Assembly (NCBI GenBank): GCA_963664235.1
Contig: OY760933.1
Location: 1,043,920-1,107,919 of the forward strand
Direction of reading: 5' to 3'
DNA: 64,000 nucleotides
From: Acidimicrobiales bacterium
GTDB taxonomy: Bacteria > Actinomycetota > Acidimicrobiia > Acidimicrobiales > CATQHL01
The first letter of the stretch is position 1, and each line of letters begins with the position of its first letter. Under the pieces are notes generated by a model. It was not told where the DNA came from and ran no database searches. It saw only the letters and a program-made list of their open reading frames with translations. Both the position numbers and the translations under genes were made by a program. This document shows, one piece after another, positions 14,913 to 24,479 of this stretch.

Positions 14913-15192
14913 ACCGATCTCCTCTCCCGATTCCCGCCTCCCGGCGGGCCCCGGCCATCTGCGGCGACGAATGAAGGATCATGCCACTTCGGTGCCGCAG
15001 GCCTATCGGCCACCGGTGAACAGTAGTCGGACCGCTGCACTTCTCGTAGCGCGTCCATACGATTCAAGCCTGTTCGGGCCAACCCAACGACACCGGTGAT
15101 GCACTGGTCCGCGGCGCGGGGGGAACCGTCGAGGGTCGGCGCCTCCTAGAGTGGCTTCCGGTGGCGGGGCGGAACAAGGAAAGGGAGACCAG

Positions 15193-15999
15193 ATGAGTGC
15201 AACGGGCGCGGACATGTTCCGCCTGGACGGCAAAGTGGCGCTGGTAACCGGCGGATCCGGCGGCATCGGCAAGGCGCTGGGAATCGGCCTGGGGTTGGCC
15301 GGCGCCCGCCTGGCGCTCACCGGCCGCTCGCAGGAGAAACTCGACGCCAACGCCGCCGCAGCGAAGGCTGCCGGCTGTGACGACGTCGAGACGTTCGGCG
15401 ACTTCGACCTGACCCATCCGGGCCGGCCCGCGGCGCTCGCGGACACGGTCGCAGAGCGGATGGGAGGCGTCGACATCCTCGTCAATGTGGCAGGTCTCAA
15501 CCGTCGCAAGCCCGCCCTCGACTTCGCCGAAGAGGACTGGGACGCCGTCATGAACCCCAACCTGAAGGCCGTGTTCTTCCTGTCGCGGGAGGTGGCTCGA
15601 CTGTGGGTCGAGGGCGGTCGGGACGCCGAGAGCGACGGTAGGGGCAAGATCATCAACATCGCCAGCCTGGCGGGGGCGATCGGGATCGCCGAGATCGCCC
15701 CGTACGGCGCCTCGAAGCTGGGTGTGGTGGCACTCACGCGGTCCCTGGGCGTCGAGTGGGCCCGCGAGGCGATCTGCGTGAACTGCATCGCGCCGGGCTA
15801 CCACGAGACGCCTATGACCATCGCCCAGGGGATCTTCGACAACCCGAAGATCGGGCCGTGGGTACGCAGCCGCATCCCCATGGGGCGACTCGGAACGACC
15901 GAGGACCTGGTCGGGCCGGCGATCTACCTGGCCTCGGCGGCCAGCGACTACATGACCGGCCAGACCGTCTTCGTGGACGGCGGCTTCGAGGCGGGCTAG
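15193..15999 (+). CDS. SDR oxidoreductase (KduD/gluconate 5-dehydrogenase-like)
   Basis: TGGSGGIG, YGASK, VNCIAPG, YMTGQTVFVDGG; GGAG RBS. Confidence 0.9.
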   Translation: MSATGADMFRLDGKVALVTGGSGGIGKALGIGLGLAGARLALTGRSQEKLDANAAAAKAAGCDDVETFGDFDLTHPGRPAALADTVAERMGGVDILVNVAGLNRRKPALDFAEEDWDAVMNPNLKAVFFLSREVARLWVEGGRDAESDGRGKIINIASLAGAIGIAEIAPYGASKLGVVALTRSLGVEWAREAICVNCIAPGYHETPMTIAQGIFDNPKIGPWVRSRIPMGRLGTTEDLVGPAIYLASAASDYMTGQTVFVDGGFEAG

Positions 16000-16053: not shown

Positions 16054-16089
16054 CTCAGGTGAGGTAGCGCTGGCGCCACTCGCCGGAGC
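16054..16089. repeat. 36-bp direct repeat, left copy (orphan duplicate of the htpX 3' end; att-like)
   Basis: CTCAGGTGAGGTAGCGCTGGCGCCACTCGCCGGAGC, identical to 23609-23644. Confidence 0.95.
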
Positions 16090-17597
16090 TAGTCCGTGCT
16101 GCTAGTCCAAGGGCCGCGGGGTGCGGCCGGATCGAAACGCACCTTCTGGACATCAAGTGCATCAAGTCCTTCCTGACCGGTTGTTCGAAGCCAGGCGTCC
16201 TGCCCGTACCACATCGGTTCCAAGATCGCGCTGAGTTCAGGCGTCAGTCGTTGCTCCGCATGAAGACGCACCGCCTCCCGTGGCAGATCGCCGAGTGCAC
16301 GTAGCGCCAGCAACCGCGCCTGCCCGGCTATCGCGCAGGCGTCGAGCAAACTGTCGATGCAACGGTGTCGCGCCAGTAGGCAAGCAGCCAACTCGGCGCG
16401 CTCCACGTCCTCGGCCAAGAGCCACTCGGTCAGTGTCTCCTGCACGCTATGGGGCAGTCCCTCGATGGCGGCGATGGCGTGAAGTGCAACGATCTCGTCG
16501 CTGTCGAGTCCGAGTCGGATCAGCAGGTCGGGTCGATGCAAACCGCCTTGGCCGAGCCCCCAGGCTGCTGCCGCTCGTACTTCCGAAGGAAGGCTTGACG
16601 AATCGGCGACTCGGGCTAGTTCATTGGCCGCAGCGCCGTCGCGCAACTCCGTCAACGCGAACACGGCCTCCATTCGCTGTTCCGTGTCGACATCGTCGCC
16701 GATGGCGCCGTCAGCTATCGCGGGAGCCCATGACGCGGCATCGAGTCGGGCGAGGTTCGCTCGGGCTTCGAGCCGGGTTCGCCAGTCCTCCGCTGTGTCC
16801 GCCTCGATGGCGAGGAGCCCGTTGACCAAGTCCCGGCGTCCAGAGATTCCTACCGCCCGGACAGCGGCGTAACGATCCACCGGATCGTTGGACCGCAGGT
16901 CCGCCGCAAAGTTCCAGGAATCACCATCACAAGCGAGAGATCCCACTGGCTGTACGACTCCAGCCACGATCGTCTCGCCGGCGGCGAACTCGTCGCCGGG
17001 AATCAGGTAGACGTGCCTTGGCGGCGTCCAGTTCCGCCAATGCCAGTACCGGCGCTGCACACCGAAGTCATCGTGGTAGCAAATCCGGCCTTCGGCATCG
17101 AGCCCGAGGAACCTGCCGCGGCGTGACGGCACCCAGCATGGCCAGGTCAGCGTCGATTCGGAGCCTTCCGACGCCGCCTTCGGCGCCGACCGCCGGGCTT
17201 GGCTGATACTGGCCCTCAGCGCCGCTCTGGAGAAGCAGACGGGCGCGCCTGCGTATGGAGGGAAGTGGCTCAGATCAGTACGTATGAACGCGAAGAGGTC
17301 GCCGTCTCGCATTCCGCCCGCGTCCCACTCGCGGCCGGGCGCGTCAGAGTGCGACAACACGACCCCCAGCTTGGACTTGGCGCGCGCTTCGACGCGCAAG
17401 CCGCAGCGGACGCACAGAAGGTCGGGCAGGCGGAGGCGCTTGACCTTCGTCTGCCACACCTTGTTGGCCATGGCGTAGCGCTCGAGTTCGACCATCCGAT
17501 GGCCGTGCTCGTCACTCAGATCAAAGGCCACGGCGGCTGCGCCAACAGCGCCCATCGAGACGAATCGGGCGAAGTCGGCATCCTCCTTGAAGCCCAT
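16089..17597 (-). CDS. Putative PD-(D/E)xK-type restriction endonuclease fused to C-terminal HEAT-like repeats
   Basis: N-terminal LRLPDLLCVRCGLRVEARAK (PD..E-x-x-x-K variant with CxxC); C-terminal repeats DRYAAVRAVG, RMEAVFALTE, EVRAAAAWGLG, ARLLALRALG; divergent from a DNA methyltransferase; ATG 17597 has TACGCT 6 nt upstream. Confidence 0.6.
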   Translation of the reverse strand: MGFKEDADFARFVSMGAVGAAAVAFDLSDEHGHRMVELERYAMANKVWQTKVKRLRLPDLLCVRCGLRVEARAKSKLGVVLSHSDAPGREWDAGGMRDGDLFAFIRTDLSHFPPYAGAPVCFSRAALRASISQARRSAPKAASEGSESTLTWPCWVPSRRGRFLGLDAEGRICYHDDFGVQRRYWHWRNWTPPRHVYLIPGDEFAAGETIVAGVVQPVGSLACDGDSWNFAADLRSNDPVDRYAAVRAVGISGRRDLVNGLLAIEADTAEDWRTRLEARANLARLDAASWAPAIADGAIGDDVDTEQRMEAVFALTELRDGAAANELARVADSSSLPSEVRAAAAWGLGQGGLHRPDLLIRLGLDSDEIVALHAIAAIEGLPHSVQETLTEWLLAEDVERAELAACLLARHRCIDSLLDACAIAGQARLLALRALGDLPREAVRLHAEQRLTPELSAILEPMWYGQDAWLRTTGQEGLDALDVQKVRFDPAAPRGPWTSSTD

Positions 17598-17622
17598 CTT
17601 GAGAGCGTAGGGTTGACATTCG

Positions 17623-19437
17623 ATGACAGCTACGGGCCACGCTGCCTCAGTCGAGAGCGCTGCACGACGACCGGGCGCGGAAGCGCCGACGTCAGACGTC
17701 ACCGGGAACGGGGAATCCGAGTTGGCGGGCACGATCTCAGTCCGCCGCAGCGACCCCGTCTACATGGCCCACGCGTATCTCACGAAGGTACCGGTGGCCG
17801 CGATCACGCCGTTCATCGAGGCGTTCACAAAGCCGGGCGATGTAGTCCTCGATCCGTTCGCCGGTTCCGGGATGACCGGTGTGGCCGCCGCTGTCACTGG
17901 CCGGCGCGCTCAACTCTTCGACATATCTGTGCTGGGCCGTCATATCGGCGCCAACTACGTCAACCTGGTCGACCCTGACATGATGCACCATCACGGCGAA
18001 GCTGTGTTGGAGAACGCCGCCCGACGAGTCGGAAATGCGTACGGAGCACGTTGCGAGGCGTGCGGTTCTGCCGCGGAACTCGTCAAGACCGTGTGGTCGG
18101 CGGTCCTCGAGTGCCAAGCCTGCAGCGAGGGGGTTAATTACTACCGGGCGTTGGAGGCCGCAGGGTGGGCAAAGCAGCGAATGACGTGCCCAAGCTGCGG
18201 CACTCGCTTCGGTGCCCGCTGTCGACGACTAGCTGAAGAGCCCGTACTCGACTCGATCCGCTGCCTCTGCTCGCGGACTCAGCTCGAACAGGACCACAGG
18301 TCACCGCTGGAGTTTCCCGATCCCGCCGGCCTGACCTGGCCTGACGTGCCGATAGGTGAATCGCGCCAGATGTACGTTGCGTCCGCCCTCGGGCGCAACG
18401 GTCTGACAACAACAGGGGCGTTCTACTCCCCTCGGAACCTGTGCGCGCTCGCCGCGCTGCGAGACGCCATCGAGGCCGTCTCCGAGCCCCAGGTGCGGGC
18501 GAAGTTGCTCTTCGCGTTTACCGCCGTGCTGACACGTGCGAGCAAGCGGTACCAGTGGTCGCGGCAGCGCCCGCTCAATGCCGCCAACGCCAACTACTAC
18601 GTCGCCCCAGTGTTCTACGAGTGGAACGTGTTCGATCTGTTCGACCGCAAGGTTGCGGCCGCGATTCGCTCCGACGAATGGATCAGGCAGCACCAGAACG
18701 GTGATTCCTCGACAGGCGCCCGCTGCCCGGACGTGGTGTACGACCTAGCCAGCGCTGACAAGCTCCCGCTGGAAGACGACTCGGTGGACTACGTCTTCAC
18801 CGATCCCCCATTCGGCGCCAACATCTTCTATTCCGACATGAATCTGTTCCAAGAGGCTTGGCTCTCCGAGGTGACGGATCCTGCCGCCGAGGCGGTGGTA
18901 GACCGCGTGGATACTGGCGCCCCTCGCACCGCCGAGCGTTACGAACGGATGCTTGCCGGCGCACTACGAGAATGTCGACGTGTCGTCAAGCCTGGCGGGC
19001 ATATCACACTGCTGTTCGGCAATAGTTCCGGCGCTATGTGGCAGCTGCTTCAGCGAGCGTTGACCCGTGCTGGGTTGGAGCCGGTGCCAGAGTTGATTGC
19101 CGTTCTCGACAAGGGCCAGCGCTCCGTTAAGGGTCTCGCCTCCGGATTCGAGAACGTGTCGACGCTGGATCTGATGCTGACTCTTAGGCCGGCTTCAGAC
19201 GGGCACGGCTTGCTCTTGACACCGCCGCCCGGTGTTGTGGACGACTTCGTCGTTGACCTGCTAGCGAGAGATCCCGAACCAACGCCCAGCCGGCTCTACC
19301 TGGCCCTGCTGCGGCATGGTCTCACTCAGGGTTGGGACCTCAGCCACCTCGATCTGCAGCGTGTCACAGCACTCCTCAGATCCACCGATGTAGCGGTCGA
19401 TCGCCAAAGCGCACGCGTACTCTCCGCCAACTGCTAA
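17623..19437 (+). CDS. Amino (N6-A/N4-C) DNA methyltransferase with Zn-ribbon insert
   Basis: HAYLTKVP, motif I VLDPFAGSGMTG, Cys pairs CEAC/CQAC/CPSC, motif IV DYVFTDPPF, ECRRVVKPGG; exact start uncertain. Confidence 0.88.
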   Translation: MTATGHAASVESAARRPGAEAPTSDVTGNGESELAGTISVRRSDPVYMAHAYLTKVPVAAITPFIEAFTKPGDVVLDPFAGSGMTGVAAAVTGRRAQLFDISVLGRHIGANYVNLVDPDMMHHHGEAVLENAARRVGNAYGARCEACGSAAELVKTVWSAVLECQACSEGVNYYRALEAAGWAKQRMTCPSCGTRFGARCRRLAEEPVLDSIRCLCSRTQLEQDHRSPLEFPDPAGLTWPDVPIGESRQMYVASALGRNGLTTTGAFYSPRNLCALAALRDAIEAVSEPQVRAKLLFAFTAVLTRASKRYQWSRQRPLNAANANYYVAPVFYEWNVFDLFDRKVAAAIRSDEWIRQHQNGDSSTGARCPDVVYDLASADKLPLEDDSVDYVFTDPPFGANIFYSDMNLFQEAWLSEVTDPAAEAVVDRVDTGAPRTAERYERMLAGALRECRRVVKPGGHITLLFGNSSGAMWQLLQRALTRAGLEPVPELIAVLDKGQRSVKGLASGFENVSTLDLMLTLRPASDGHGLLLTPPPGVVDDFVVDLLARDPEPTPSRLYLALLRHGLTQGWDLSHLDLQRVTALLRSTDVAVDRQSARVLSANC

Positions 19438-19629
19438 CAGCGGCTGCTTGGGTGAGCAGTCGCGCGCGCCCGTCAGGTCCGGTCAGGCTCGGCCTGGCCG
19501 GGGACACCCTCCTCCGACGCTCGCCGCAGTCGTTCCTGGCCGCAGGCTTGGAATAGACAGACAAACTTCGTTGTTGTAGTTGCATCATTGGCATTCCGGC
19601 CACCTCAAGAACTGCCCGGAAGGGACGCA

Positions 19630-20955
19630 ATGGCAGAACATGAACAGATACCCAGCAGCGCCCCTGCAGTCGAACCGCGCGGTCCGGTCTTCATCTCGTA
19701 CCGTCATAGCGACGCCAGAGCGCTAGCGGAATCCCTCGCGTGGGCGCTTCGGGCAGCCGGCGTGCCTGTCTGGCACGACGTGACCGACCTTCCTCCTGGC
19801 GACACCGATCGCCGCCTTGGCGAGGCGCTCGATTCCGGGCTGTCCGGCGCCGTGGTCATCGTCACACCCGAGATCGGGCAGTCTCAGGTAATTCGCGATC
19901 TCGAGTTGCCACGTCTGCTGGACCTTGAGCAGGAGTCCGAGTTCACTCTTGCGGTCGGATCAACGGTTGAAGCAGGTGACAGCACCGGGAGTCTCGACTA
20001 CTCGGCACCTGACCAGCTTCTCGGTCAGCCACCCGGGACGCTGCAACGCCTTAACCAGAGACGAGTGGCAGACGCCGAAGAGCGAGCGGAACTGGCAAAC
20101 GCTCTGGCCAGACAGCGTCTTGCGCGGCTTCGGACCGAGATCCAAGCCGCGGGTGGAGTGCTCGTGATCGATATCCAGACTCGCGTTCCCCCGGTAGCGA
20201 CAGCCCAGGACGGCGATCTGGTTCTGCGGCTACGACCACCTGTGGACGGTGAGCGCCGCCCGCACCGCGGAGGCCTCGAGAACTTGCACCGGTTTCTCGG
20301 TGAACTACCGCTGCTGATTGCCACGTCAGGCGCCCGTGCCATACGAGTGCGCGGAGGGGCACACCTGTCGGTTGCCTGTGCCATCGGCGCAGCACTCCCC
20401 ACCACGCTTGTGGGCACCGTCGAGGTTGTCGATACGGCAGGCCACACGTGGGTGCTGTCCGGACAGGCGCCATCACCCACCCGCGAGCGGCTCTGCGGGG
20501 CTGTCACACCCCCTGGATACAACTGTGGGCATGGTCCAGTGCTCGCCTTCATCGACCTGCTGCCGCAGCAAAGCGCCGCTGCGTTCGACGCGATGCTCCG
20601 GTCAGGCCGAGCCGCCTTCGCGGGCGTTCTCCACTTGCGCCCACGCGGTGCTGGCCTGCTCAATCCTGACGACGCCGAGATGCTCGTGGGTGAACTCAAC
20701 GCAGAAATCCGCGCGCTCGCAAGTACGCATCACACGACGGAGGTCCATCTGCTCCTGCGGTGCCCGTACCCGGTTGCGGTTCTTCTCGGCCGCACCCTCA
20801 ACACCCTCACGATCAATCTCTACGAATGGGAGGACACCCCTGATGGCGACTCCGGGCCTGATCCACGGTACGTCCCGAGCATCGTGTTGCGCTCGGGAAG
20901 TGGGGGCTCACCAATCGACCGCATCACAGCTCCACCGTTGAGCTGCCGATCTTGA
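19630..20955 (+). CDS. CBASS effector, TIR-SAVED (NADase plus cyclic-oligonucleotide sensor)
   Basis: TIR: VFISYRHSD, GVPVWHDVTDLPPG, IRDLELP (catalytic Glu); SAVED: GGAHLSVACAIG, EVHLLLRCPYPVAVLLG, INLYEW. Confidence 0.9.
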   Translation: MAEHEQIPSSAPAVEPRGPVFISYRHSDARALAESLAWALRAAGVPVWHDVTDLPPGDTDRRLGEALDSGLSGAVVIVTPEIGQSQVIRDLELPRLLDLEQESEFTLAVGSTVEAGDSTGSLDYSAPDQLLGQPPGTLQRLNQRRVADAEERAELANALARQRLARLRTEIQAAGGVLVIDIQTRVPPVATAQDGDLVLRLRPPVDGERRPHRGGLENLHRFLGELPLLIATSGARAIRVRGGAHLSVACAIGAALPTTLVGTVEVVDTAGHTWVLSGQAPSPTRERLCGAVTPPGYNCGHGPVLAFIDLLPQQSAAAFDAMLRSGRAAFAGVLHLRPRGAGLLNPDDAEMLVGELNAEIRALASTHHTTEVHLLLRCPYPVAVLLGRTLNTLTINLYEWEDTPDGDSGPDPRYVPSIVLRSGSGGSPIDRITAPPLSCRS

Positions 20956-20968
20956 AAGGAATGTGTTA

Positions 20969-21991
20969 ATGGAGACGCTGCACACGCAGTTCAGCCAGGC
21001 CCTGTCGAACATCGAGATCAGCGACGCCAGGCGCCAGCGCGCGATTGCTGCGCATACAGAGATCCAAGACTCGCTCTCCAGCGACAGGATTTTGTGCGAC
21101 TGGGGAATCAGTACACGGCTCATCGGCTCCTACAGCCGGCACACCGCAATTCACCCTGGCAAGGACGTCGACGTGTTCGCACGCCTCGAACGCCTCGACG
21201 CGGGAGCCAACCCTGAAGCCGTCTATCAGCGCGTGTGGGATCTGCTCTTTGCGCGGTATGGCAGTCGAGCCACGCCGCAGGCACGCAGCATCAAGGTCGA
21301 GTTCCCGAGCGGGGCCGGAATAGACACCAGCTTTGCTGTCGACGCCGTGCCCGCCGTCCGCTCTGGCAGCCGATGGGCGATCCCTGCCACGGACAGGAGC
21401 TTGTGGGCCGACAGTCCGAGCCGTTGGGTCGTGACCGATCCTGAGCGGTTCGGTGCGCTCTCAAGCGACCTGAGCACGGCGGCTTGGAGCCCCATCGTGC
21501 GGGGCCAGGATGCCTACAAGCCCGTGGTAAAACTGATGCGACAGGTACGCGAGACGCACCTGGGCGATCTAAGGCCCGGCGGCCTGTACGCCGAATTCGC
21601 CACCTACGACGTCTGGAACTCCAGGCTGGTTCGCGGTAGCGAGTGGTGCCAACTCCTCGCTGCGACGCTTGGTGCTGTGGCTTCTAGGTTCGAGGCCGCA
21701 CCAACGAAGCCGCTCGTGGATCCTGGGCTCGGCACGCCGGTTGACCCGGCACTCGACGCAGCCGTCTGGCTCTCAGCCGCCCAGACTTTCTTCAGGCTCG
21801 CCGATCTGGCTGCCGAGGCCCTGAACTTGGGAAAGTGCACGGCCGCAGCACGGTGGCGAGAGATCCTGGGAGAAAACTCGAGGGGGAAGGTCTTCCCTGT
21901 GCCACCCGGGTGTGACGCCAGAGGATTTGCCACGACAGGCATGGCCGGACTAGTCGCGGCTAGGCCGAGGGAGGCTCAAGGATTCGGATGA
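20969..21991 (+). CDS. CBASS cGAS/DncV-like nucleotidyltransferase (CD-NTase)
   Basis: LIGSYSRHTAIHPGKDVDVF, RSIKVEF, VDAVPA, TDP, KPVVKLMRQ, WREILG; C-terminus ...AQGFG. Confidence 0.92.
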   Translation: METLHTQFSQALSNIEISDARRQRAIAAHTEIQDSLSSDRILCDWGISTRLIGSYSRHTAIHPGKDVDVFARLERLDAGANPEAVYQRVWDLLFARYGSRATPQARSIKVEFPSGAGIDTSFAVDAVPAVRSGSRWAIPATDRSLWADSPSRWVVTDPERFGALSSDLSTAAWSPIVRGQDAYKPVVKLMRQVRETHLGDLRPGGLYAEFATYDVWNSRLVRGSEWCQLLAATLGAVASRFEAAPTKPLVDPGLGTPVDPALDAAVWLSAAQTFFRLADLAAEALNLGKCTAAARWREILGENSRGKVFPVPPGCDARGFATTGMAGLVAARPREAQGFG

Positions 21992-23565
21992 GCGAGTCGG
22001 CACCGGTCGACACCTTCGATCAAGCGTCACTTGAGTGCTTTATAGCGGAGTTGGTGGCGGCTGGATTCGAACCAGCGCCGGGAACCGGTAGGAGAATCTG
22101 GGTAGGACCCATTCATCCCGCTCTTGCGCCGCTCACCGACGCCCAAGAGATGCGCCTTTTGCTCCGAGACGGATGGCCTGTGGTCTTTCCCTACTTGTTC
22201 GCGGGGGGTCTGCTCACGAACCACCTCACGTCCGATGGATACGTGTGCCTCTGGCACGAAGGCGACAGCTCGGGGGAATGGGTCACGCTTAACGGCGTCC
22301 TTGATCGGCTCATCCAGTGGAGCAACAGTGCCAAGCATGGGTGGGATCCTGCTGGCCTCGCCCAGGACGCGCAACTCAACTTCCAGACGAAGCATGCAGC
22401 AGTCGCCACGTTTGACCTGGATGAACTACAACTTGGCCGCGCCGGGACGTGGGGATCGTTCCACGGCAGAGCGCACCACCCTCTGCACATCTCACTTCAT
22501 CCGGGCCGCCGACCTGACAATCAGGGACTCGACGGCCTGTGGATTCGTTCGACTGTCCTGGACGTGCCGCCGCGGAACCTGGCCGAGTTGAGACAGGTAC
22601 TCAATCGAGCCCAATTGCACGGTCTCGACCGGGCGCTCGACTCTCGCCGTAACGGCGGCGAGACGCTCCAGCCGAGCGGGTCGACTGATGTCATCCTGTT
22701 TGCGTGGGATCGAGAGGAACTTCGGCACGTGCTCGTCCTTGCCCTCGAAGGGACCGGCGCCGATACGACCGCGGTCGCCCTCCGACCCGGTCCCAGAGAC
22801 AGGAAGTCCCTCATGCTGCGAGCCGGACCCGATGCAACAGAACTTGCAGAACGGACGGTCGTCGTTCTCGGTTTGGGCGCACTCGGCGGTCATGTGTCGG
22901 TTGCATTGGCTGAGAGTGGCGTCACTCGACTCCAACTCGTTGACGGCGACCAGCTTCTGCCCGAGAACGCCGTTCGCCACGTGGCAGGCCAGCACGCGGT
23001 CGGGCACCCTAAGCCAGTCGTGGTGGCGGCGACCGTCGCCGATCACGCTCCGTGGACCGAGATCACCACGCTGGCAACTAACCCAATGTCTCCGGAGGCG
23101 CTCGGTCAGGCCATCACAGACGCTGATCTGGTTGTTGACGCTACGGGTGGCGGCGCAGCCACTCAGGCCATCTGCCTCAGCGCACTAGCTCAGGACAAGG
23201 CGGTTGTATCTGGCGCACTCTTCCGGGGTGGCGCCATCTCGCGAATACGGCGCCAAGGAACGCCTGGCGATACGCCCATTCTCGACCGGACACCGGCGCT
23301 CGGCTACCCGCTGATCCCATTTGGCGACGGCGATGACCTGATCCGGCCCGCGGTCGGCTGCTCTGGACCCGTGACGAACGCTCCACCAACGACAGTCCTA
23401 GCCGCGGCGGCACTAATCGCCGAGACGGCCATAGATGCCCTTACCGGCCGCTTGGCGCTACCGGACGAAATCATCGACGTCTACCGGGCTCTGCCCGACG
23501 AGCCGCCGTTCGACCGGATCGGGAGAGTGGCGCGGCGAGTACCAGAGGAACCCACTCTCGTCTGA
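21988..23565 (+). CDS. cap2: CBASS Cap2, E2-E1 (ThiF) ubiquitin-like conjugating enzyme
   Basis: E2: GWP..FP, NHLTSDGYVCLW; E1: VVLGLGALGG, VDGDQLLPENAVRH, LVVDATG, VGCSGP catalytic Cys; ATGA overlap with the CD-NTase. Confidence 0.88.
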   Translation: MSESAPVDTFDQASLECFIAELVAAGFEPAPGTGRRIWVGPIHPALAPLTDAQEMRLLLRDGWPVVFPYLFAGGLLTNHLTSDGYVCLWHEGDSSGEWVTLNGVLDRLIQWSNSAKHGWDPAGLAQDAQLNFQTKHAAVATFDLDELQLGRAGTWGSFHGRAHHPLHISLHPGRRPDNQGLDGLWIRSTVLDVPPRNLAELRQVLNRAQLHGLDRALDSRRNGGETLQPSGSTDVILFAWDREELRHVLVLALEGTGADTTAVALRPGPRDRKSLMLRAGPDATELAERTVVVLGLGALGGHVSVALAESGVTRLQLVDGDQLLPENAVRHVAGQHAVGHPKPVVVAATVADHAPWTEITTLATNPMSPEALGQAITDADLVVDATGGGAATQAICLSALAQDKAVVSGALFRGGAISRIRRQGTPGDTPILDRTPALGYPLIPFGDGDDLIRPAVGCSGPVTNAPPTTVLAAAALIAETAIDALTGRLALPDEIIDVYRALPDEPPFDRIGRVARRVPEEPTLV

Positions 23566-23608
23566 GCGGCGAAGTTCCGACCAGCGCCTGAGGTCTCCGG
23601 TGCGGTGG

Positions 23609-23644
23609 CTCAGGTGAGGTAGCGCTGGCGCCACTCGCCGGAGC
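23609..23644. repeat. 36-bp direct repeat, right copy (in-frame 3' end of htpX)
   Basis: Identical to 16054-16089; on the minus strand encodes SGEWRQRYLT-stop. Confidence 0.95.
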
Positions 23645-24479
23645 GGAGGCGCTTGACCCGCTCCTCGGTGGCCGGGTGGGTGGAGAACAGGCCGGCGAAC
23701 TCGACGCGCTGGCCGGCCAGCGGGTTCACGATGTAGTGCGAGGCCTGCTCGCGCGCCACCGGGGTGGGGATGCGGCGCCCGGCCCGGTCCAGCTTCTCCA
23801 GCGCCCGCGCCAGGGGCTCGCCGTCGCCCAGCAGCTGCGCGGCGGTGCGGTCGGCCTTGAACTCGCGGGTCCGGCTGATCGCCGACTGGACGAGGGCCGC
23901 CGCGATCGGGGCCAGGATCATGGTGGCCAGGAGCACCAACGGGTGCCCGCCGCCGCGATCCCTGCTGCCCCCGCCGCCAGTGAAGAGGGCGGCGAAGAAG
24001 GCGATGCGAGCCACCAGCGTGATCGCCATGGCGATTGCCGCCGCCACCGAGCCGATGAGGATGTCCCGGTTGCGAATGTGCATCAACTCGTGCGCCAGCA
24101 CGCCCTTGATCTCGGTCCAGGAGAGGTGCTCGATGAGTCCCGCCGTTATCGCTACCGCGGCGTTGTCGGGATTGCGCCCCGTGGCGAAGGCGTTGGGCTG
24201 CGGGTTGGGCGTGACGTACAGCCGGGGCTTCGGCAGCTTGGCCCGTGAGGCCAACTCCTCCACCACGGCGTGGTATTCGGGGAATTCGTGACGCTCCACC
24301 AGCCGGGCGCGGGCCGATGCGATGGCCAGCTTGTCGGAGAACCAGTAGGAGAAGCCGACGATGGCGAAGGCCAGGACCGCCCCCACGATGAGCCCGCCCG
24401 TCCCGAAGATGCCGCCGATGCCGATGCACAGGCCCCCCAACAACCCCAGCAGGACGAAGGTCTTGAAGCTGTTCTTCAC
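23610..24479 (-). CDS. htpX: Zinc metalloprotease HtpX (M48)
   Basis: PNAFATGRNP, GVLAHELMH, ISRTREFKAD, LFSTHPATEERV. Confidence 0.95.
   Translation of the reverse strand: MKNSFKTFVLLGLLGGLCIGIGGIFGTGGLIVGAVLAFAIVGFSYWFSDKLAIASARARLVERHEFPEYHAVVEELASRAKLPKPRLYVTPNPQPNAFATGRNPDNAAVAITAGLIEHLSWTEIKGVLAHELMHIRNRDILIGSVAAAIAMAITLVARIAFFAALFTGGGGSRDRGGGHPLVLLATMILAPIAAALVQSAISRTREFKADRTAAQLLGDGEPLARALEKLDRAGRRIPTPVAREQASHYIVNPLAGQRVEFAGLFSTHPATEERVKRLRSGEWRQRYLT

Follow-up and report, generated by a model that had tools for sequence, protein, structure and literature searches.

A probable type II CBASS operon with full-length Cap2 and without Cap3 in a genomic island of an Acidimicrobiales bacterium

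The 64,000-nucleotide stretch of contig OY760933.1 of an Acidimicrobiales bacterium (assembly GCA_963664235.1, positions 1,043,920 to 1,107,919), referred to as a whole as the window, carries three genes which quite probably make up a working type II antiphage signalling system based on cyclic oligonucleotides (CBASS). Judging from its sequence, this system would have a distinct and evolutionarily stable architecture, in which a full-length E2-E1 Cap2 is present and Cap3 is not. The open reading frames (ORFs) and their family matches bear out the gene order given by an earlier, sequence-only reading of this DNA, namely TIR-SAVED effector, CD-NTase (the cyclase) and E2-E1 fusion:

19630..20955, plus strand: TIR-SAVED effector, 441 aa from ATG; an alternative TTG start at 19588 gives 455 aa
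20963..21991, plus strand: CD-NTase, 342 aa, ending in ...REAQGFG
21988..23565, plus strand: Cap2, E2-E1 fusion, 525 aa

All three genes are intact and co-directional, and since the gap between the first two is 8 bp and the last two overlap by 4 bp (ATGA), they are regarded as one operon. A promoter and terminator scan of positions 19300-23750 gave no promoter-like site and one terminator-like site inside a gene, both results being within chance. The effector matches Pfam TIR_2 (5e-11) and SAVED (1.6e-12) as well as the PADLOC TIR effector model PDLC00728 (3.4e-136), the cyclase matches Pfam SMODS (1.7e-11) and the PADLOC cyclase model PDLC00810 (5.8e-100), and Cap2 matches Pfam ThiF (7e-20) and the PADLOC E1-E2 model PDLC00847 (1.9e-152), the latter spanning 7-517 of its 525 residues. 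The ThiF/E1 domain occupies Cap2 residues 284-487. Both cysteine motifs reported by the sequence-only reading were located, GYVCLW at residues 84-89 (C87) and VGCSGP at residues 456-461 (C458), and the Gly terminus of the CD-NTase (...QGFG) which it had pointed out is present too, the terminus being conserved across the cyclase family.

The search for Cap3 was extended to the whole genome, which is a single 3.49-Mb contig with an estimated completeness of 95%. Six-frame searching with PF14464 (Prok-JAB) produced two matches, both outside the window: a 138-aa protein adjoining a cysM-type gene, which we read as a housekeeping JAB protein of the Mec type, and BilC within a complete BilABCD system. 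A Cap3 hidden Markov model (HMM) built from 27 Pfam-confirmed Cap3 proteins of the window cyclase's family had its best genomic match in the Mec-like gene (E 0.014), had none in the window and left BilC undetected. The PADLOC JAB model PDLC00904, which does match the Cap3 of the cyclase family (1.2e-38), gave no match in the genome. Thus the lack of a JAB gene, noticed earlier for the island in which the operon resides, holds for the window and the island, no Cap3 was found with any of the three models in the 3.49-Mb genome, and the genome-wide Prok-JAB search that had been proposed as a check revealed no cognate cap3 elsewhere. A JAB domain concealed in Cap2 or in the effector was also considered and is excluded by the lengths of the two proteins and their coverage by the models (7-517 of 525 and 26-447 of 455 residues, respectively). 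Since the match of the effector to PADLOC models of JAB-TIR-SAVED fusions is confined to the TIR-SAVED portion of those models (positions 167-582 of 584), the effector is taken to have no JAB domain.

The Bil (bacterial ISG15-like) system, BilA-BilB-BilC-BilD, is found at 2115736-2118990 of the same genome (L002), about 1.05 Mb from the CBASS island. Its components match PADLOC models with E-values of 1e-39, 2e-55, 1e-57 and 3e-139, and an HTH-like gene lies upstream of it in divergent orientation.

A total of 302 homologues of the cyclase were found at E<=1e-3. The neighbourhoods of the best 80 of 93 related stretches were scanned, one genome per species and 8 kb on each side. In 44 of these 80 loci Cap3 directly follows cap2 (Cap3 HMM, E 1e-46 to 1e-71), in a few of them fused to the next effector, while four loci (L007, L034, L038, L067) were not assessable, their contigs breaking off within cap2 or the cyclase. 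In the remaining 32 assessable loci, as well as in the window, no Cap3 HMM match below E 0.5 is present within 8 kb. What lies downstream of cap2 in these 32 loci is HsdM, a helicase, Mrr, GmrSD, HEPN or nothing recognisable. Hence the survey of homologous neighbourhoods, likewise proposed with the earlier reading, showed that the near homologues do not all possess cap3, and the same gene set in 32 further assessable loci, followed by unrelated genes, favours the first of its two explanations, a natural Cap3-less variant.

When the 31 genomes holding Cap3-less loci were searched in full with the Cap3 HMM, 30 had no match at E<=1e-3, and the positive controls were all found (3/3). The remaining genome has one weak match (2.8e-5), located about 370 kb away from the CBASS locus in a frame of 1131 aa. 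Meanwhile PF14464 gives at least one match over the Pfam cut-off in each of the 31 genomes. Where such a match and the CBASS locus are on the same numbered contig their ranges were compared, and no match falls inside a CBASS locus save a partial, RadC-like one in L032, which is 5.4 kb away and on the opposite strand. Clustering of 1732 flanking six-frame ORFs of the 33 Cap3-less loci yielded no family common to the clade that could have taken the place of cap3.

The largest flanking family among the Cap3-less loci is a conserved, CRP-like gene of about 260-330 aa in 13 Chloroflexota loci (L015, L018, L021-L025, L027, L029, L031, L041, L046, L047). It lies on the minus strand about 150-1000 bp upstream of TIR-SAVED, divergent from the operon, shows weak matches to cNMP-binding (5e-4) and Crp-HTH (7e-3) domains, both below cut-off, and is absent from the Acidimicrobiia loci. 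In the 13 Chloroflexota loci this gene could be a regulator of the operon. Two metagenome-assembled genomes (MAGs) contain two Cap3-less copies each, on different contigs: L007 and L012, whose cyclases are each about 63% identical to that of the window, and L024 and L025, which are nearly identical to each other.

A midpoint-rooted tree of 67 rows was calculated from cyclase and Cap2, with the last 25 cyclase residues omitted and 14 rows (fragments, frameshifts or stops) left out. In this tree 28 Cap3-less rows, including the window, form one clade together with a single Cap3-bearing row, L057 (SH-like approximate likelihood ratio test, 99), which is sister to L016. The clade spans two phyla, one of its two branches consisting of Acidimicrobiia and the other of Chloroflexota, and the presence or absence of Cap3 requires a minimum of 2 state changes, versus a mean of 21.6 for shuffled labels. 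Because every row outside the clade has Cap3, loss of Cap3 is the likelier direction of change, given a root that is only a midpoint one. That 28 of the 33 Cap3-less loci belong to one clade, and that 30 of 31 genomes have no match to the Cap3 model, further agrees with a natural variant.

The same tree contains a MAG labelled Croceicoccus (Pseudomonadota), L037, whose system is almost identical to that of Microbacterium helvum (L033), with end branches of 0.045 and 0.053; this near-identity reflects either a recent transfer or a binning error.

Comparison of 64 Cap2 sequences (26 from Cap3-less and 38 from Cap3-bearing loci) showed that conservation reaches at least 95% in either group for each of C87 of the E2 part, H79, C458 of the E1 part, the G295/G297/G300 loop, D319, R330 and K342. 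Across the clade Cap2 identity falls from 78% to about 47%, and every catalytic residue is kept. The AlphaFold2 model of Cap2 has a mean predicted local distance difference test (pLDDT) score of 85.6, confidence being low only in the loops that surround the two cysteines, and its best fold in the PDB is Enterobacter cloacae Cap2 (7TO3, E 1.6e-20) over the full length. H43, N78, W119, L124, N131 and P454, the last near the E1 cysteine, are specific to the Cap3-less Cap2. Broken or ambiguous genes were observed in 5 of 33 Cap3-less loci versus 5 of 44 Cap3-bearing ones; the former comprise cap2 split into two high-scoring segment pairs in L017, L027, L028 and L046 and an in-frame stop in the cyclase tail of L039.

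Among 27 homologues of the cyclase G55, S56, D68, D70 and D127 do not vary; the ...EAxGFG terminus is likewise conserved. The nearest solved structures are 6P8U and 6P82 (about 2e-12), which we take to be CdnC/CdnD, followed by Bacillus cereus CdnD 9SA4, an enzyme that makes cyclic tri-adenylate (cA3). Each of the 33 Cap3-less cyclases has the conserved terminal residue as its very last one (Gly in 32, Ala in one), whereas 28 of the 44 Cap3-bearing ones extend 2-14 residues past the conserved G-F-A, 15 are mature and one is unclear. The extension often reads S-L-P-W-P-x-R-R and is conserved across genera (e.g. L052, L053, L049, L079), and the residue at the conjugation site is Ala in 40 of 43 Cap3-bearing cyclases. 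The association of the extension with Cap3 is strong in a Fisher test uncorrected for phylogeny (3e-10); on the tree, the extension changes state five times in the Cap3-bearing subtree (length 14.9) and not once in the Cap3-less one (length 6.7), P being about 0.10.

From these sequences the extension is likely to be a pro-peptide, which Cap3 would need to remove before Cap2 can act. The pattern fits the cut reported by Ledvina et al. (preprint), in which Cap3 cleaves a cyclase-GFP fusion exactly after the last cyclase residue; this statement, like those taken below from other preprints and papers, refers to the part of the source that was accessible. No description of natural cyclase pro-peptides was found in the literature searched, supplementary tables not covered.

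The effector aligns over residues 12-433 with the TIR-SAVED protein of Microbacterium ketosireducens (Mke; PDB 7QQK, 7.7e-93), and the effectors of L004 and L005 align with the window effector from residue 1 of its ATG form. According to the preprint of Hogrel et al., Mke TIR-SAVED is an NADase activated by cA3, E84 is catalytic, and R388 and W394 are needed for the cA3-driven assembly, which the R388E substitution abolishes. The catalytic Glu is kept in the window (E84 of the 7QQK chain aligns with E92 of the 441-aa form) and W394 is conserved, while R388 aligns with Thr. Since Mke TIR-SAVED is activated by cA3 and CdnD 9SA4 makes this molecule, the window cyclase is likely to make a signal of the cyclic tri-adenylate type.

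The operon is the right-hand part of an island of 7.55 kb, for which htpX, at the 3' end of this gene, was the insertion target. The other features of the region are:

15151..15999, plus strand: short-chain dehydrogenase (SDR), opposite chromosomal flank (Pfam adh_short_C2 1.2e-51)
16054..16089, unstranded: left copy of a 36-bp direct repeat (island boundary), 36/36 match to 23609-23644
16089..17732, minus strand: HEAT-repeat protein, 547 aa, island cargo (weak Pfam HEAT_2 match, 1.3e-5, below cut-off)
17623..19437, plus strand: DNA methyltransferase, 604 aa, island cargo (Pfam N6_N4_Mtase 1e-19)
23566..23608, unstranded: spacer from the cap2 stop to the right repeat, 43 bp, too short for cap3
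23609..23644, unstranded: right repeat copy, 36 bp, forming the 3' end of htpX (repeat match)
23610..24479, minus strand: htpX (M48 peptidase), chromosomal flank and insertion target (Pfam Peptidase_M48 2.4e-33)

The distance from the cap2 stop to the repeat is thus exactly 43 bp (23566-23608), as had been stated before. The island contains the HEAT-repeat protein, the methylase and the CBASS operon, no integrase was seen inside it, and its G+C content is 0.63-0.66 versus about 0.69-0.72 in the flanks. Eleven loci of the same genus, located by means of the adjacent dehydrogenase gene, were inspected for an empty site: in seven of them the dehydrogenase adjoins htpX and a single copy of the 36-mer is present, three have the island, and one shows neither arrangement within 1.5 kb. 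The coexistence of empty and occupied sites indicates a real, variable insertion. The same island, with its full set of genes, is found next to htpX in three Acidimicrobiia MAGs (L004, L005, L008), each of which has the HEAT-repeat protein and methylase together with CBASS; compared with the window, their effectors are 75-93% identical, their cyclases 71-85% and their Cap2 proteins 76-79%. The left repeat copy was not found in L004 or L005 with up to 8 mismatches allowed, and that of L008 is degenerate (7 mismatches); the boundary has therefore decayed in the relatives and not in the window.

As for the two cargo genes, the methyltransferase matches PADLOC MTase_II PDLC03312 (1.3e-97) and a PglX-like model (3.3e-75) and resembles the methylase part of long type II or PglX-like enzymes. 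The HEAT-repeat protein has no match in PADLOC or NCBIfam, and its ESM Atlas neighbours are HEAT-repeat clusters. The two genes are divergent, their predicted 5' ends overlapping by about 110 bp, and the pair may be an unrecognised restriction-like or defence module.

If the operon works as its components suggest, the cyclase would be born with a mature terminal Gly and would need no C-terminal processing. Cap2 would adenylate this Gly, relay the cyclase through thioesters at E1 Cys458 and E2 Cys87, and conjugate it to targets, whereby the cyclase would become primed. With no deconjugase, priming would be one-way and reset only by protein turnover; irreversible priming seems the simplest reading of such a gene content. 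Upon infection the cyclase would probably make a cyclic tri-adenylate-type signal, which TIR-SAVED would bind, and the effector would then polymerise and hydrolyse NAD+, so that the infection would be aborted. As a broader and more tentative proposal, it is possible that CBASS with E1E2 only form a third natural class of type II, that in this cyclase family a main function of Cap3 is to trim the pro-peptide and so lay bare the conjugatable residue, and that lineages with born-mature cyclases no longer need Cap3, have lost it and prime one-way.

The second explanation offered by the sequence-only reading was loss of cap3 at the island edge. On this view the gene would have disappeared at this site during insertion or trimming of the island, leaving a canonical type II system in truncated form. 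Although the cap2 stop is only 43 bp from the island boundary and cap3 of the Cap3-bearing relatives sits in that very position, directly after cap2, this proposal is contradicted by the 32 other assessable loci which lack cap3 even though unrelated genes, and not an island edge, follow cap2. Moreover, the 28 Cap3-less rows, the window among them, are one old clade, and L004, L005 and L008 share the same island and gene content, all of which leaves local loss extremely improbable. The view that the locus is a decaying remnant, in which the Cap2 module is no longer relevant, might appeal to the breaks in 5 of 33 Cap3-less loci; yet breakage is similar in the Cap3-bearing loci (5/44), the window genes are intact, and the catalytic residues persist at Cap2 identities from 78% to about 47%, so that decay is very improbable as well.

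Priming could still be reversible if a deconjugase acted in trans, be it BilC, a Mec-like JAB protein or an unrelated protease, and the two Prok-JAB proteins of this genome (one of them in the complete BilABCD), together with at least one Prok-JAB match over the cut-off in all 31 Cap3-less genomes, offer candidates for such a role. These matches, however, resemble the common housekeeping Mec type, PF14464 being positive in 11 of 14 control genomes too, and they are unlinked to the CBASS loci. No accessory gene is common to the 33 Cap3-less loci, and Cap3 was reported to be active on its cognate cyclase only (mLife 2026). A trans-acting deconjugase is accordingly judged quite unlikely. It also seems unlikely that Cap2 has taken on a different role in this clade, either releasing or hydrolysing its own products in the manner of the E2 in E2-only CBASS or stopping at the Cap2~cyclase thioester, in both of which cases a separate deconjugase would be superfluous. 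There is a precedent in the E2 of E2-only CBASS, which is itself a cysteine protease and processes the cyclase by means of two His residues (Yan et al. preprint), and H43, N78, W119, L124, N131 and P454 set the Cap3-less Cap2 apart; but such clade-specific residues may merely mirror shared ancestry, the canonical E1 and E2 catalytic residues are unaltered, and the fold is that of canonical Cap2.

A number of points weigh against a working system primed irreversibly. It is from anatomy and conservation that conjugation, signalling and defence are deduced here. When phylogeny is taken into account, the link of a mature C-terminus with missing Cap3 becomes weak and hence only suggestive, there being effectively one or two independent losses of Cap3, and since 15 of 44 Cap3-bearing cyclases are born mature too, maturation is not the only role of Cap3. 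With Thr in place of R388, the ligand may be one other than cA3 or may be contacted differently. Many of the relatives are MAGs, which makes the absence of Cap3 elsewhere in their genomes less secure. Finally, induction of cGAMP in Escherichia coli after T4 infection required both Cap2 and Cap3 (Jenson et al. 2023), and thus Cap3 is not always dispensable.

In the accessible text of the Ledvina et al. preprint every CBASS system with Cap2 is said to encode Cap3 as well; Cap3 was dispensable for CBASS defence in Vibrio cholerae, and its excess counteracted defence. Jenson et al. (2023) examined 1,583 operons that encode full-length Cap2 and Cap3; type II has been split into E1E2/JAB (1,583 systems) and E2-only (616 systems) classes (Yan et al. 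preprint; mLife 2026). Within the accessible parts of these papers Cap2 and Cap3 are treated as an obligate pair and only the E1E2/JAB and E2-only classes are listed. No description of a Cap2-only class was found in the literature searched, supplementary tables, which may list JAB-less operons, not covered. A conserved clade that has an intact Cap2 and lacks Cap3 amounts to a natural knock-out, which can reveal what deconjugation serves, be it restraint of autoimmunity, reuse of the cyclase, or nothing beyond the maturation of a pro-cyclase. Matched systems for this question are L057, the Cap3-bearing sister, and the relatives whose cyclases have the pro-peptide. Should a third class be real, deconjugation would be a dispensable layer of CBASS control in nature. 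Defence-system finders that require a JAB gene could mis-type such operons.

With the canonical type II systems of V. cholerae, E. coli and E. cloacae the window shares a CD-NTase with a C-terminal Gly, a full E2-E1 Cap2 with a 7TO3-like fold and an effector presumably activated by a cyclic nucleotide. It differs from them in that Cap3 is missing from operon, island and genome alike, and from its clade of relatives too. Of the features of the E1E2/JAB class, the CD-NTase, the fused Cap2 and the terminal Gly/Ala are therefore found, and Cap3 is not. The type II-C CBASS of M. ketosireducens (Hogrel et al. 2022; 7QQK) has a full-length homologous effector with the same catalytic Glu and W394, and according to the Hogrel et al. 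preprint its cyclase makes cA3, the activator of the NADase. The Microbacterium loci belong to the same cyclase family, with about 50% identity to the window cyclase. Their genes, however, are arranged as cyclase-Cap2-Cap3, followed by TIR-SAVED in L035 and L043, and their cyclases carry an extension of 2 residues (L035, L043) or 4 residues (L033), in contrast to the effector-cyclase-Cap2 order, missing Cap3, mature Gly and Thr for R388 of the window.

E2-only CBASS, represented by Serratia marcescens CdnG-E2 in the accessible text of Yan et al., resembles the window in the lack of JAB and in the C-terminal Gly of the cyclase as the attachment point. Such systems have no E1, their E2 is a self-protease employing two His residues, and their cyclases are mostly of clade G and bear an extra C-terminal motif, whereas the window has a complete E1 domain and a full Cap2 fold. 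BilABCD of the same genome is likewise a defence system based on ubiquitin-like conjugation with E1, E2 and JAB, yet it occupies a separate locus about 1.05 Mb away and has its own ubiquitin-like (Ubl) substrate.

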